Assembly: GCA_964533475.1 (NCBI GenBank)
Contig: CAZHJH010000001.1
Location: forward strand, 1,485 to 29,755
Length of the DNA stretch: 28,271 nucleotides
From: an uncultured Methanosarcinales archaeon
GTDB taxonomy: Archaea; Nanobdellota; Nanobdellia; Woesearchaeales; JAGVYU01
Direction: 5' to 3'
Position numbers and translations under genes: made by a program. Below are positions 16,058-20,741 of the stretch, piece by piece (position 1 is the stretch's first letter; every line of letters starts with the position of its first letter). The notes beneath the pieces are model-generated. The model made no database searches. It saw only the letters and a program-made list of their open reading frames with translations, and was not told the origin of the DNA.

Positions 16058-16435
16058 ATGCCCCACCAATGCGTCAGATGCAATAAATTCTATGATGACG
16101 GATCTACGGCTTTGCTGCAGGGCTGCGACTGTGGAGCAAAGTTGTTCTTCTATATTAAAAAAGAAAAGCTTGAGGCTAAGCAACCTGTTGTCAAGCTTGA
16201 GAAGGAGCAGCGCGAGCAGATTGAAAACGACGTTATGGACTTGATAGGAGAGGATTTAGATCATCACGATCCTGTCGTCTTGGACCTTGAGTCCATAAGG
16301 GTCACGAAACCTGGCACGTATGAGATTGATGTTGTTCATTTGTTTAGAGGAGATCCCGTCATCTTTAAGCTGGAGGAGGGGAAATATATGATTGATCTCC
16401 TGCAGAGCCTGAAGTCTTCGAAGAAGGCTAAGTGA
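16058..16435 (+). CDS. oapC: Zn-ribbon protein (DUF2072/COG3364), OapC-like
   Basis: MPHQCVRC...GCDCG..LF, ESIRV..PGTYEID and G.Y.IDL. Confidence 0.88.
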   Translation: MPHQCVRCNKFYDDGSTALLQGCDCGAKLFFYIKKEKLEAKQPVVKLEKEQREQIENDVMDLIGEDLDHHDPVVLDLESIRVTKPGTYEIDVVHLFRGDPVIFKLEEGKYMIDLLQSLKSSKKAK

Positions 16436-17371
16436 ATGGATGCAGAACAGTGTGCCCGGCTGCTTGAGAAGATCGCGGCAATGCTCGAAATTCAGGGGAA
16501 ACGCTGGGAGCCTGTGGCGTATAGGAGGGCAGCTGCGTCATTAAGAGAAGTTTCTGAACCTATTGAAGGCATCGCTAAGAAACGCAAGCTTGAGGAAATT
16601 CCAGGGATAGGCGAGGGTATTGCGAAGAAGCTTTATGAATTCATTCAGACAGGAAAGCTGAACTATGTCGAGCAGCTCAAGAAGGAGTTGCCCATGAATG
16701 TTGAGGAGCTTATGGCTATTCCGGGGCTCGGCCCGAAAAAAATCAAGAGGTTGTATGATGATTTGCATATTACGGATAAGGAGTCTCTGAAGCGCGCATT
16801 GGAGCAGCGTAAAATCCGAGGTCTTCCTGGATTTGGCGAGAAAAGTGAAGCCCGGTTGTTGCGGGGAATTCAAGACACGAAAGGAAAGAGATACACTCTT
16901 GACGAGATTCTCCCGCTCGCGTCAAAGTTTGAGCAGGATGTGAGAAAACTGAGTTATGTGCGAAGGGTAATTGTTGCGGGAAGCATCCGCCGCCGTGAGA
17001 AAACTGTTGGAGATATTGACGTTCTTGTGGATAGTCCTGAGCCTCAAGGGGTTATGAAGTATTTCACCACGTATCCTCTTGCGATGAGGGTGATCAGCAG
17101 GGGGAGCAAAAAAGCGTCTGTGGTCTGGAAGAATGGCATACAAGTGGATATTCGCGTTGTTCCGGATGAAAGTTTTGGATCAGCGCTCCAGTATTTTACA
17201 GGGAATAAAGCGCATAACGTCCGGCTTCGCACGCTTGCGATAAAAAAAGGTTTGAAGCTTAATGAATACGGGTTGTTTAAGGGAAAGAAGCGAATCGCAG
17301 GAGAGTCTGAAGAAGGGATTTACAAGGTGCTTGGTTTGAAATGCCCGCCTCCTGAAAAACGATTAGCGTGA
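16436..17371 (+). CDS. polX: Family X DNA polymerase lacking the C-terminal PHP domain
   Basis: AYRRAA, HhH motifs IPGIGEGIA and IPGLGPKK, GSIRR, GDIDVL, QVDIR, YFTGN and LNEYGLF. Ends at PPPEKRLA (311 aa). Confidence 0.92.
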   Translation: MDAEQCARLLEKIAAMLEIQGKRWEPVAYRRAAASLREVSEPIEGIAKKRKLEEIPGIGEGIAKKLYEFIQTGKLNYVEQLKKELPMNVEELMAIPGLGPKKIKRLYDDLHITDKESLKRALEQRKIRGLPGFGEKSEARLLRGIQDTKGKRYTLDEILPLASKFEQDVRKLSYVRRVIVAGSIRRREKTVGDIDVLVDSPEPQGVMKYFTTYPLAMRVISRGSKKASVVWKNGIQVDIRVVPDESFGSALQYFTGNKAHNVRLRTLAIKKGLKLNEYGLFKGKKRIAGESEEGIYKVLGLKCPPPEKRLA

Positions 17372-18166
17372 GGGCTGCGGTATAGGAAAAATATCGTCGT
17401 CACAATACGGCACGCCATTCGGTTGCCAATGGCAGGTTCCCGTTGGACAGCAAATGTTAATCACATTTTCAAAATCTCCTTGCCCCAGGCAGAGTTGCTG
17501 TGTCGAGTCATCACAAGAATCTGGATTGTCTCTGCAGAATTTCGTTCCAGCCGGTCCACTCGTGCATGTTTGACCGGTAGCGCAACAGAAAAAATCATCC
17601 CATCGCGGATCAGGCCCATAATTCTCATCATTTTGGAAGCAATAGACTGGCTTATCCACCGGGCAGCGTCCTTCTCCGGGACAAAATGGCTGGTTTTGAC
17701 CTCCCCACGTATCAATGACTCCGCAATCAACCGTAGTTGAGGGGCAACAAATTGAAATGTCATCAGCTGTGCATTTCACAGTATATGTTGAAGGCTGTCC
17801 CGGCATCGGACAGCTAAACCCGAGTCCATCGATGCAAATATTCGCTGCAACTCCTTCATCAGTTCCAGGAATTCCATAAAAGAGAGACCCGCAGCTCTGA
17901 ACATTTCTTCCCGCGGCGTCCTTTGCTCCCGAGCAGCACGCTGCAGGAGCTCTCGAGTCGAGTGTGCAGCATGTTGCTCCAGGAGGACAGCAATTCAACC
18001 CTTCTCCTGCCGTTCCCGAGTTGCATCGGGGCCACCCTAGATCGGTGCACATATTCCTGCTCGGTTGTGCAGCCGTAAAGCCGGACTTTGTAAATTCCGG
18101 GGTTTTGGCAATGATGATAAGCACGAGAACGAGTAGCCCAACGAAAACAAGCATACGTTTATCCAT
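17363..18166 (-). CDS. Secreted or membrane-anchored Cys-rich repeat protein
   Basis: N-terminal hydrophobic helix. 28 Cys in 267 aa, with repeated C-xn-C-xn-CC-x4-6-C-xn-C modules. TATA-like (TA)n run at about 18187-18197. Confidence 0.85.
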   Translation of the reverse strand: MDKRMLVFVGLLVLVLIIIAKTPEFTKSGFTAAQPSRNMCTDLGWPRCNSGTAGEGLNCCPPGATCCTLDSRAPAACCSGAKDAAGRNVQSCGSLFYGIPGTDEGVAANICIDGLGFSCPMPGQPSTYTVKCTADDISICCPSTTVDCGVIDTWGGQNQPFCPGEGRCPVDKPVYCFQNDENYGPDPRWDDFFCCATGQTCTSGPAGTKFCRDNPDSCDDSTQQLCLGQGDFENVINICCPTGTCHWQPNGVPYCDDDIFPIPQPSR

Positions 18167-18282
18167 CTAGTGCAATCAATGGTGATTATATATATAGCTT
18201 TCCTTAATATCTGATAATTGTAACCACTAACTGATGATAAAAATAATAAACTTTATATATAAGCTCCGTTTAGGGAGAAAAA

Positions 18283-18648
18283 ATGAGAGCCTTAAACGCA
18301 ATTCTCGCGGGAACCGCAATCGGTTTACTTACGGCGTGTTATCATCCGAGGATAAATGATAATGGTGAGGTAGTTCATCGTGCTGAATATCGCAGAGATC
18401 GTGATTTTGTGCATGATGCAGTGGAACGTGAATTGAGGACGTTGCGAACTCAACCCTTCTCTGCCTTGGAATCAAGAGTGGTTAACCAAATCTCAATAGA
18501 CGCATTTAGACGAGATCTTCCGTATTTTACCGAGCAGTTTCTGCAGGCATATCCCACATACGATCAGACGCGCGAGGAAGATCGCCTCTTGCTGCTCAGA
18601 ACGATGGAATCTGTCATGAGCCCTTCCGGCCTCGGCGCCATTCACTAA
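18283..18648 (+). CDS. Putative lipoprotein, hypothetical
   Basis: MRALNAILAGTAIGLLTAC is lipobox-like. TATA TTTATATA (18252-18259) ends 23 nt upstream. Confidence 0.75.
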   Translation: MRALNAILAGTAIGLLTACYHPRINDNGEVVHRAEYRRDRDFVHDAVERELRTLRTQPFSALESRVVNQISIDAFRRDLPYFTEQFLQAYPTYDQTREEDRLLLLRTMESVMSPSGLGAIH

Positions 18649-18677
18649 TTTGTAACTACTCTAGAATACTATCAAAA

Positions 18678-18696
18678 CGTAAAGTTTATATATAAG
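18678..18696 (+). promoter_or_regulatory. Orphan BRE/TATA promoter (cgtaaag-TTTATATATAAG)
   Basis: The 12-mer is identical to the promoter of the 18283 gene. No start codon occurs at the leaderless position (~18715). Confidence 0.6.
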
Positions 18697-18714
18697 TGCT
18701 ACTACTAGAGAGTA

Positions 18715-18950
18715 TATACAGAAACTGGTTATCTGGGGGTAATCGGTGAGTTGGGGGGTGGATTTTCTTTTTTCATGAAAAATCCGCCATTAATTAACGC
18801 CCGTTAAGGAAAAGCAGGCAAAATAACGATCTATCACCTCTTTTCCCTGGTGAATCCGAGCAATCGGGTTTGCCAGGGTTTTCATGATCACCTCTTTTTC
18901 CTGGGCTGGGTTTCCTTCGGGAAATTCAGTCCAGGTTTGTAATCACTATC
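18715..18950 (+). ncRNA. Candidate ncRNA with tandem anti-SD + hairpin units
   Basis: ATCACCTC at 18833 and 18887, ATCAC at 18942. 15-bp hairpin 18845-18878 with GCAA loop; 16-bp hairpin 18900-18935 with C-UUCG-G loop. All non-Watson-Crick pairs are G.U on the plus strand. Confidence 0.55.
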
Positions 18951-18959
18951 AGAAAGAAC

Positions 18960-20741
18960 TTATTTCTTGCGCCTCCGTCTCTTTGCTGCTGGCTTTGCCT
19001 TTCTTTTCCTTCGCCACGTATACACTCCAAACGCAATCACTATTGAAATGCCCGCCCCAATACCCATTCCAATAAGCAAATCTCGAGAAATCTTAGGAAT
19101 CATAGAAGGCTGCGTTCCATTATTCTCAAAATAAATATCTAGGTTGCTTAATTCAAGCGCGTATTCCGCATAGAGCAGAGCAGAGTAAATGTCGCTATCC
19201 TTCAAGCTTACTGAATATTCGTAATAGCTATAGCCGAGGAGCGGGAACACGCCTTTGGCGTATTGTTTCGAGATCAGCGTTCGAATGAGCGTATGTTTGC
19301 GATCAAGAAGTTTCACCATATCCTTTTCCTGAACGCCAAGGATACTGAGCACAAGGTCGACCTCTGCTTTTGTCTTTGCCGCCTTAAACAGGCACAGCGC
19401 GTATTGTTTTTGAGCGAGATCTGCGTACGCTTCATCGAGCGCTCCCTTCTCAACCGCGAGTGATTTTGGAAAAAACAAAGTCACGTATTGATGCCGCTCT
19501 TCGACTTCTGCAATCTTGTTCAGGCAGCTGCTTTTGAGCTCTTCTTCTTCGAGATTGAACTGCTTTCCAGGCATTCCGAAGAAGTGCGACCATGACTCCG
19601 CACTATAGACACGCTCAAGCGTGTACGCGAGATCTCCGAAGCTGTGATCGCCTTGTTGCGCGAGGCTGTACGTTTTATTCAGGCTCTCTGTACTCTCGAG
19701 CACGCGCTCCTTCACGATCATGTACGTTTCAAGATCCGTGATCGTCGTTTTTTCCCTCAATTCAAGCGCGTCATCGATTTCCGTAATCTGCTGGCCAAGG
19801 TCATTTATCTTTGCATACATCTTTTTCTTGTCAAAACGCTCGCTTTTCAACAGTGCCTGCTGCGCCTGCACATTCGCCCCAAAGCAGAATGACGCGGCGC
19901 TGTAATAGCTATATTCCGCATACGCCGCGGCGCTCTTATTTGTAAAATTGAGGATTTTCGACTTCTCATCTGAATAATTTCCAACGCGGGGGATTTTGGA
20001 TGTCAACAGGGTTGAGCGATTACACAGCATGTCCGCGAGCCCATGCATGATCTTCTCATATTCAGGATTGACGATCAGCTCAGGATACGCATCGCTTTTT
20101 CGTTTCCCCGTAAATACATGATACACATCATCTATGGAGCCTACTTCGATGACGTTAACCCCGAGTTCCTCTCCAAATGCGATGAGGTCAATCGTGCTGC
20201 AGTTGCCCGAGCAGTCGCTGTCATTCTCTGGAGTATAATAGCGCTCCCCTTCAGGGATGAGCACCGTCGTTATGTCACCATCAGCCGCCGCTTTGATTTT
20301 GTGGTTAATCCCTCCAACAGGTCCGATAAGGCCGCCTGCATTGATTGAGCCTGTGAGACTTATGGAATTGTCAAGAGAAATATCCTCAAGAACTGCAATG
20401 GTAAGCATCGTTGCGGCGGCTCCTGCGCTCGGGCCGCCAACAAGGTTCGTGTCTGCCCTAATAGTATAGATGAAATCATACGCGCTGCAGTCAGCATCAA
20501 TGTAATCACACGCTATTTCTTTGGCGAACCTCGTTGAAATCTGTGTATCGAACTTCGTGAGCGGAAATGTGTCCAGAAACACCCGCCCTGAGCCGTCGCG
20601 AATCTCCAAGGACATGTCCGCGAGGTTGCCTTTCATTCCCTCTTCTGAGACGCTGACTGCAAGGAGCGGGATATGCTGCTCTGCGGCAAGTGTGCTAGGT
20701 AAAACTAAGAGGGCAACGACCAAAATCCATAACTTCTTCAT
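18960..20741 (-). CDS. Archaeal Lon-like (S16) serine protease, COG1750 type; secreted with C-terminal membrane anchor
   Basis: Signal peptide MKKLWILVVALL..., GGPSAG (Ser), TGSINAGGLIGPVGGINHK (Lys), and a C-terminal TM helix with a basic tail. Start set at ATG 20741, 21 nt from TATA 20763-20770. Confidence 0.88.
   Translation of the reverse strand: MKKLWILVVALLVLPSTLAAEQHIPLLAVSVSEEGMKGNLADMSLEIRDGSGRVFLDTFPLTKFDTQISTRFAKEIACDYIDADCSAYDFIYTIRADTNLVGGPSAGAAATMLTIAVLEDISLDNSISLTGSINAGGLIGPVGGINHKIKAAADGDITTVLIPEGERYYTPENDSDCSGNCSTIDLIAFGEELGVNVIEVGSIDDVYHVFTGKRKSDAYPELIVNPEYEKIMHGLADMLCNRSTLLTSKIPRVGNYSDEKSKILNFTNKSAAAYAEYSYYSAASFCFGANVQAQQALLKSERFDKKKMYAKINDLGQQITEIDDALELREKTTITDLETYMIVKERVLESTESLNKTYSLAQQGDHSFGDLAYTLERVYSAESWSHFFGMPGKQFNLEEEELKSSCLNKIAEVEERHQYVTLFFPKSLAVEKGALDEAYADLAQKQYALCLFKAAKTKAEVDLVLSILGVQEKDMVKLLDRKHTLIRTLISKQYAKGVFPLLGYSYYEYSVSLKDSDIYSALLYAEYALELSNLDIYFENNGTQPSMIPKISRDLLIGMGIGAGISIVIAFGVYTWRRKRKAKPAAKRRRRKK

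Follow-up and report, generated by a model that had tools for sequence, protein, structure and literature searches.

A predicted small RNA family of DPANN archaea that carries the anti-Shine-Dalgarno sequence of 16S rRNA beside a covarying hairpin

Intergenic small RNAs (sRNAs) that mask ribosome-binding sites (RBS) are known in Archaea from Methanosarcina mazei, the examples being sRNA154 and sRNA41 (PMC5867862), and the cia-dependent small RNAs (csRNAs) of streptococci hold anti-Shine-Dalgarno (anti-SD) sequences in unpaired regions (PMC3091779). Here we describe an RNA gene in a stretch of 28,271 nucleotides (the window; positions 1,485 to 29,755 of contig CAZHJH010000001.1, assembly GCA_964533475.1) from an uncultured archaeon of the order Woesearchaeales, class Nanobdellia. 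At about 18716-18941 on the plus strand of the window lies a promoter-led non-coding RNA gene that contains no open reading frame (ORF) and is built of two tandem units, each made of a seed, AUCACCUCUUUU(U)CC, followed by a hairpin of 15-16 bp with a tetraloop and then a U-run. Like the two M. mazei RNAs it is archaeal, intergenic and promoter-led, and it carries an anti-RBS sequence that would pair with Shine-Dalgarno (SD) regions, including those internal to polycistronic messages, and repress translation. We know of essentially no regulatory RNAs from DPANN archaea, organisms that are mostly uncultured.

A structured RNA on the plus strand

A preliminary description of the locus had listed a promoter, two units, a third ATCAC and a regular spacing, and all of these were found at the positions it gave. 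The sequence ATCACCTC is located at 18833-18840 and GATCACCTC at 18886-18894, the spacings are 54 and 55 nt, and the third ATCAC occupies 18942-18946. The last of these does not open a third unit; it belongs to a conserved 3' flank, UUUAUAAUCA. The same description had proposed a novel, structured non-coding RNA that is read from the plus strand, and this agrees with the strand-specific fold, the promoter and the negative Rfam scan given below. The minimum folding energy of the plus strand is -91.6 kcal/mol (z -4.6) vs -65.9 kcal/mol (z -2.2) for the minus strand, and the G.U pairs of both stems, three in each, become A.C mismatches on the opposite strand.

Units from homologous loci share this polarity. 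Of 47 distinct units, 42 have the stabler hairpin on the motif strand (mean -23.5 vs -17.4 kcal/mol). In these 47 units 94 of 719 pairs are G.U, and the loops include UUCG 24 times and GCAA seven times, both of which are special loops only on the motif strand. We assign the RNA to the plus strand because of these G.U pairs and the UUCG and GCAA loops. In an unfitted MAFFT alignment of 37 units, RNAalifold returned a 14-pair helix in which 12 pairs show compensatory changes. When 111 units were aligned to a covariance model, 93.3% of cells were paired, compared with 65.1 +/- 0.9% after shuffling and at most 55% after sliding; double changes occurred at 13 of the 14 pairs, and cells with double changes numbered 457 vs 117 +/- 14 after shuffling. 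A model-fitted alignment is biased toward the structure, and the unfitted alignment and the folds of single units agree with it. Covariation in both the 37-unit and the 111-unit alignment bears out the earlier proposal that the stems are selected for pairing, and on this comparative evidence the element is a selected RNA hairpin of the plus strand.

The gene has its own promoter. The 12-mer TTTATATATAAG at 18685-18696, which includes the TATA box, is the same as that before the neighboring 121-aa ORF, and no start codon stands at the leaderless position, both as first described. The putative transcription start lies at about 18714-18718. We surveyed 121 loci from 120 contigs with the promoter pattern [AC]GAAA-N1-3-TTWAWAW within 160 nt upstream of the motif, and found a B recognition element (BRE) and TATA box directed at the motif in 85 of them, with a mode of -36 to -45. 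Under the usual archaeal promoter geometry a BRE at -36 to -45 gives a start 0-10 nt before the seed, hence the common form of the family would be about 60 nt long and run from a 5' seed through the hairpin to the U-run. The end of a same-strand ORF within 30 nt upstream was seen at only 5 of the 121 loci; in the window the nearest such ORF ends at 18648, and the promoter lies between it and the RNA. Terminator-like hairpins were not enriched in 20 kb of the window (20 found vs 22.4 +/- 5.8 expected), and the two unit stems are by far the longest of them. Generic tandem terminators, which had been named as the mundane alternative and judged insufficient, are excluded as the whole explanation by these counts and by the promoters of the 85 loci. 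The hairpin and U-run very likely make the 3' end of the RNA itself, and the U-run of the 3' flank in the window is the probable RNA 3' end or terminator. The features of the locus are collected in Table 1.

Table 1. Positions of features in and around the two-unit RNA gene (window coordinates)
Feature	Position	Strand	Remark
Gene of Cys-rich 267-aa protein	17363-18166		Upstream of the sRNA in this genome
121-aa ORF, genus-specific	18283-18648	+	Upstream of the sRNA gene
Intergenic region	18649-18959		Between the plus-strand 121-aa ORF and the minus-strand Lon_C/S16-like gene
Putative upstream promoter element GTAACTACT	18652..18660	+	Fixed distance 5' of the BRE at homologous loci
Archaeal promoter: BRE-like ACGTAAAG, then TATA box TTTATATA	18677..18692	+	
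5' leader, ~117 nt	18716..18832	+	Two local hairpins, two G-runs, purine tract
Leader G-runs UGGGGGUAAUC and UGGGGGGUGGAU	18735-18739, 18753-18758	+	SD-like, complementary to the seeds
Leader purine tract GGAAAAGCAGG	18808-18818	+	SD-like, complementary to the seeds
Seed A: AUCACCUC + UUUU + CC	18833..18846	+	AUCACCUC identical to 16S anti-SD
Hairpin A: 15 bp, GCAA loop, 3 G.U pairs, then TTTT	18845..18878	+	Aligns to the covarying helix of model R1
U-run and linker UUUUCAUG joining the units	18879..18886	+	Family consensus GGGUUUUAU(A/G)
Seed B: AUCACCUC + UUUUU + CC	18887..18901	+	Exact family 15-mer
Hairpin B: 16 bp, UUCG loop, 3 G.U pairs, then TTT	18900..18935	+	Aligns to the covarying helix of model R1
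3' flank UUUGUAAUCAC: U-run and conserved AUAAUCA tail	18936..18946	+	Aligns to model positions 52-62, UUUUAUAaUCA
Lon_C/S16 peptidase-like gene, 635 aa	18960-20867 (stop 18960-18962)	-	Convergent; outside the RNA

The upstream promoter element follows the pattern GT(A/T)AC(T/C)ACT, which most homologs (loci L058-L177) have some 10-25 nt before the BRE. It also occurs before the 121-aa ORF (18218-18262; the region of the sRNA is 18650-18700) and before a few other genes and has about ten sites in the genome, and its partly palindromic partner (AGTAGTAAC) is often near the transcription start. GT(A/T)AC(T/C)ACT may be the operator of a transcription factor with a small regulon that includes the sRNA.

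Distribution, neighboring genes and viral copies

In BLAST comparisons of the intergenic region with relatives, the short matches, which came from other families of the order, were exactly the seed-hairpin units. The homologous loci share one design, in which (A/G/U)ATCACCTCTTTT(T)CC is followed by a hairpin of unrelated sequence and then by GGGTTT(T)AT(A/G)ATCA. The exact 14-15-mer pattern ATCACCTCTTTT[N]CC is present in 242 of 401 genomes of the order, compared with about ten for a reversed control, and the anti-SD arm, on whose conservation in homologs the preliminary description had made its proposal depend, is therefore kept. Among 301 genomes drawn from the whole class, 119 have the pattern, some of them in families of other orders. 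Five complete genomes without the exact pattern were examined and each carries a variant seed, CUCACCUCUUUUUCC or AAUACCUCUUUUUCC, and in ten genomes from other families of the class no unit rose above background. The family is wide in the class, yet not universal. More than 120 contigs with the motif are all titled Woesearchaeota, Nanoarchaeota, Nanoarchaeia or Nanobdellota, save evident mislabels. Many third-party annotation (TPA) bins that hold the element are titled 'uncultured Methanosarcinales archaeon', probably a labeling artefact of submission.

Covariance modeling, the means by which homologs had been expected to be recognized, gave clear separation when the model was built from homologous units. 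This model, R1, scored 57.7 bits with unit B and 32.4 bits with unit A (E 1e-15 and 4e-8 in the window) and at most 21 bits in the rest of the 1.43-Mb genome, where the weak matches are reverse complements of real SD plus ATG sites. The genome thus scored holds a single sRNA locus, and the genomes examined hold one to three each. Fifteen of 20 second-site seed matches in other genomes are further sRNA units at separate loci, often in tandem and with the degenerate first seed ACACCUCUUUU; the remaining five are without hairpin. Since the further units have a degenerate first seed, the strict core of the family is (C)ACCUCUUUU(U)CC. Single units account for 107 of the 121 loci and two units for 14, and the two-unit form with a long leader is a minority form within the family. 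The periodicity of about 54 nt, which had been taken as the essence of the system, is not shared by most members, and the suggested processing into unit-length RNAs found no support.

Neither the window nor 20 homologous loci matched any Rfam 15 family at gathering score, and at E<=10 only chance-level matches appeared (20.6 bits vs a gathering score of 50). Full-text literature searches found no description of this RNA. Hence we conclude that it represents an RNA family of Woesearchaeota and Nanoarchaeota (DPANN archaea) that is undescribed in Rfam and in the literature searched.

Copies of the unit also occur in viruses. A scan of IMG/VR gave 14 contigs with the pattern, about seven of which hold a canonical promoter-led unit. 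In four of them (L193, L197, L198 and L203) the unit lies between the genes of the terminase large subunit (TerL) and the portal protein, on the same strand as both, and the flanking genes match PHROG families of the terminase large subunit at 1e-43 to 1e-47 and of the portal at 1e-26 to 1e-84. L200, L201 and L202 likewise hold canonical units. Such promoter-led copies in tailed viruses fit an RNA that would act on host translation.

The convergent downstream neighbor encodes a membrane-anchored, S16 peptidase-like protein (Pfam Lon_C, 1.4e-9) that has no AAA domain; its layout is a Lon_C catalytic core, a long helical region, a C-terminal transmembrane helix and a Lys-rich tail. This gene is the immediate convergent neighbor at 31 of 38 loci of the order and at 48 of the 121 loci of the wider set, and in many relatives its stop codon, read in reverse complement, supplies the UCA of the conserved 3' flank. 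At full length the protein is conserved throughout the order, and several further families of the class have it too. Many of these carry no RNA (f145, f138 and f153 among others), RNA-positive families from outside the order (f151, f156, f159, f139) mostly do without the full-length protein, and the viral copies have no such neighbor. The synteny therefore looks historical rather than functional, and a dependence of the sRNA on the Lon-like gene was rejected by this lack of co-occurrence across the class. In 21-22 relatives (loci L007-L053, -100 to -1500) a divergent gene pair for a CxxC protein of about 190 aa and an HKD, phospholipase D-like (PLD-like) protein of about 300 aa lies upstream; other genes take this place in the window.

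The source genome is an archaeal metagenome-assembled genome (MAG) of 1.43 Mb in 190 contigs, 95.7% complete, and the DNA sequencing runs that contain the locus are groundwater metagenomes. The window contains no tRNAs. About 2.3 kb upstream of the sRNA a gene for OapC, an origin-associated protein, is followed by one for a PolX-type, DNA polymerase beta-like protein (16058-17371, plus strand), and a replication origin may lie near these genes. An origin element of the ORB type near OapC was considered for the repeated units; the G.U asymmetry and the tetraloops argue for RNA instead.

Possible function and rival readings

The first 8 nt of the single-stranded seed (A/C)UCACCUCUUUU(U)CC equal the 16S anti-SD tail. 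An rRNA search of the MAG found no 16S (small subunit, SSU) gene in the contigs of this assembly; in all six relatives examined the 16S gene ends in GGAUCACCUCCU and passes directly into a U-rich run. These ends uphold the match to the anti-SD sequence that had been claimed for the arm, and because the tail adjoins a U-rich run, the invariant 15-mer AUCACCUC-UUUUU-CC resembles an anti-SD plus spacer. A tRNA-like sequence (GGGCCCGTAGCTCA...), apparently with an insertion or intron, follows within about 100-150 nt of the 16S gene in relatives (L054-L057 and L207). In the genome of the window GAGGTGAT is a genuine SD, with 54 occurrences of which about 20 have an ATG 2-7 nt downstream, and SDs of the GAGGUGAU and GAGGUGAT types are used. 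GGTGAT-N2-8-ATG occurs 126 times vs 8 for the reversed control. By these counts SD-led initiation is common in the organism, contrary to the earlier view that SD-led genes are a minority.

Our leading proposal, to which we give slightly less than an even chance, is that the RNA acts in trans by pairing with ribosome-binding sites. The exposed seed would pair with SD or RBS regions and block 30S binding or compete with it, in the manner of RBS-masking sRNAs of archaea and bacteria, the hairpin and U-run would serve as 3' end and stabilizer of the RNA, and the invariant U-tract beside the hairpin may be a site for an Sm-like archaeal protein (SmAP). In the long form the SD-like tracts of the leader would fold back on both seeds, so that the RNA would become active only once the leader is opened or removed. 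When 18716-18941 was folded by partition function, the purine tract at 18808-18818 paired with CCUCUUUUCC of unit A (P ~0.76) and GGGG at 18753-18756 with CCUC of unit B (P ~0.55). Among 58 distinct leaders of at least 35 nt from other genomes, the leader-seed duplex was stronger than with shuffled leaders (mean z -1.85; 43 below -1, 24 below -2 and none above +1), typical seed complements being UGGGGGUGA, GAAAAAGAUGGUG and AAUGAGGUGA. Because these duplexes outdo those of shuffled leaders, the long forms carry built-in SD-like 'anti-seeds'.

Several observations weigh against pairing with ribosome-binding sites. By the same fold, both seeds of the window are predicted to be partly masked by the leader. 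The SDs of the genome are not preceded by an A-run, so SD pairing fails to explain the invariant UUUU(U)CC. A crude index of SD usage showed no clean relation to the presence of the RNA across families: the RNA is present in f156 and f170, whose index is near 1, and absent from f145 and f138, whose index is 4-8. Recurrent, perfectly complementary mRNA start regions were not found, the second-site matches being mostly sRNA copies. Finally, a search of RNA runs returned none containing the stretch, and four metatranscriptome contig sets, all tiny, gave zero coverage. The sole other 12-nt perfect complement of the seed in the genome is at C97:1672-1683 (L003), in the SD region (AAAAGAGGTGAT-TCC-ATG) of a gene for a membrane protein of ~75 aa; chance alone predicts about one such site.

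What pairing leaves unexplained, the invariant U-tract, is accounted for if the RNA mimics the 3' end of pre-16S rRNA at the junction of GAUCACCUCCU and UUUUU, and acts, without any mRNA pairing, on a tail-binding factor (Nob1, Dim2/Pno1 or another) as its decoy, competitor or regulator. The U-rich run behind the 16S end of all six relatives favors such mimicry, archaeal Dim2 and Nob1 bind or cleave this segment of 16S rRNA, and the lack of a correlation with SD usage is neutral to it. We nevertheless hold it to be rather unlikely: the second C and the U of CCUCCU are missing in every member, the first bases of the seed drift (CUCACCUC, AAUACCUC, ACACCUC) where 16S rRNA keeps GAUCACCUCC, and the hairpin of single-unit members is 3' of the tail, that of 16S rRNA (h45) 5' of it. 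The Nob1 Pfam match here, at 21.9 bits, is below the cut-off, with a zinc-ribbon model so insensitive that it also gave no match in control archaea. A broader version, in which a mimic of the 16S tail and U-spacer titrates a maturation nuclease or chaperone, an initiation factor or all SD elements, in DPANN archaea and their viruses alike, appears to us just as improbable. Somewhat less likely again is a protein-bound structural or regulatory RNA in which U-tract and hairpin form a platform like an Sm site for SmAP or another protein, the likeness to the anti-SD being secondary. A U-rich single strand beside a terminal hairpin is the classic layout of an Sm site, the genome has an LSM-domain (SmAP) gene on contig C30, and the strictest core, CCUCUUUU(U)CC, lies between the CCC/GGG helix end and the second U-run; however, neither chance nor a U-tract binder readily accounts for an 8-nt identity with the 16S tail that most of several hundred genomes preserve, and the SD-like seed complements of the long leaders point to base-pairing as the selected property.

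The remaining readings are improbable even when taken jointly. If the units were mere terminators or insulators between convergent genes, with an incidental upstream arm, this would suit the shape of a hairpin followed by a U-run, the usual position between convergent genes next to the Lon-like stop codon, and the few copies directly after a same-strand ORF (L006, L043) or, in viruses, after TerL. We consider this quite unlikely, given that at most loci the unit has a promoter of its own, 0-10 nt or more upstream, and at only 5 of 121 a same-strand ORF ends nearby, that a genome has only one to three loci, that the gene ends of this genome show no excess of terminator-like hairpins, and that termination needs no invariant 15-mer; for the Lon-like gene, moreover, the polarity is wrong, A-runs being what follows the minus-strand hairpin. 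The synteny with the Lon-like gene, whose stop codon is often inside the 3' flank or whose frame reaches a TGA in the reverse complement of AUCACCU, would also accord with a cis-antisense partner that regulates the 3' end of the Lon-like mRNA by full complementarity. This we rate as very improbable: 73 of the 121 loci are not beside such a gene, viral copies have no such neighbor, and the full-length protein is absent from most RNA-positive families beyond the order and present in many RNA-less ones. On the minus strand, lastly, GAGGUGAUC-AUG can be read as SD and start of a 31-codon mini-ORF (18885-18790), which does exist behind what is a genuine SD in this genome. Yet its ATG is not conserved (homologs have ATA, TTT or GTA), no start codon follows the second GAGGTGAT, every real SD of the genome stands farther from its start codon than the 1 nt found here, the G.U pairs and the UUCG and GCAA loops show selection of structure on the plus strand, and the product has no Pfam match, so that this reading is scarcely credible.

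Other known elements were considered and set aside. A resemblance of 'ACAGAAAC' at the start of the RNA to CR-V of RNase P has no Rfam support and was dropped. The locus is not part of an rRNA operon, as no SSU match occurs in the window or assembly and the 16S genes of relatives lie elsewhere and are normal. A CRISPR array was rejected because there are only two 'repeats', with one in most genomes, and the sequence between them is a perfect hairpin, and a box C/D or H/ACA guide because conserved boxes and Rfam matches are absent and the stems are fully paired without a pocket. The antitoxin RNA of a type III toxin-antitoxin (TA) system fits neither the wholly different stems of the two units nor the downstream gene, a convergent S16 peptidase.

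Significance and comparison with known systems

The family constitutes an sRNA with strong comparative support that has been kept over a very deep radiation, in hundreds of genomes that belong to more than one order; tailed viruses have acquired it as well. Its sole invariant part copies the sequence by which the ribosome recognizes mRNA. An action on initiation would make the RNA a global regulator of the whole lineage, or a tool of viral take-over, that affects the choice between SD-led and leaderless messages. Mimicry of the 16S precursor would instead make it a decoy of a new kind in ribosome biogenesis, and titration of a tail-binding factor could make it a switch between SD-led and leaderless translation or a gate on 30S maturation. 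The RNA of about 60 nt is a testable object for in vitro work, and the covariance model allows these genomes to be annotated. The window adds a well-resolved, two-unit long form that would mask itself, along with negative co-occurrence tests for SD usage and the Lon-like neighbor.

Tandem direct RNA repeats of about 36-55 nt behind one promoter are typical of ToxI-like RNAs of type III TA systems. The locus shares with them the tandem units behind one promoter; unlike ToxI, the family is mostly single-unit and the stems differ wholly between units, and the analysis of neighboring genes found no endoribonuclease toxin gene following on the same strand. With intrinsic terminators it has in common a G+C-rich stem, a stable tetraloop and a 3' U-run, but it differs by its own promoter, its invariant 5' arm, its single locus per genome and its independence of same-strand gene ends. 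The 3' end of archaeal 16S rRNA offers the identical 8 nt, AUCACCUC, followed by a U-run as in the rRNA loci of relatives; in contrast, the element belongs to no rRNA gene, lacks the terminal CU, has the motif 5' of the hairpin and forms an RNA of about 60-230 nt.

Closer parallels are provided by the RBS-masking sRNAs. The csRNAs (51-202 nt) are likewise short, with a promoter and a terminator hairpin, an unpaired anti-SD (in csRNAs also an anti-AUG) and, in some species, sibling copies in one genome, and carriage on a mobile element is documented by one csRNA on plasmid pST0 (PMC3091779). They differ in being bacterial and CiaR-dependent, in having the seed between two stem-loops and in having been detected on Northern blots (PMC3091779), whereas the predicted RNAs of the present family have the seed 5' of a single hairpin and an archaeal BRE/TATA promoter. 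The M. mazei sRNAs are restricted to a genus and display their anti-RBS within hairpin loops, and both their targets and their regulation have been validated (PMC5867862). The present family has no homology to them in sequence or structure; it is class-wide, occurs in viruses and has an invariant linear seed made of the 16S tail and a U-tract. By kind it resembles the RBS-masking sRNAs; its sequence, its range, its invariance and its carriage by viruses mark it as a new family.

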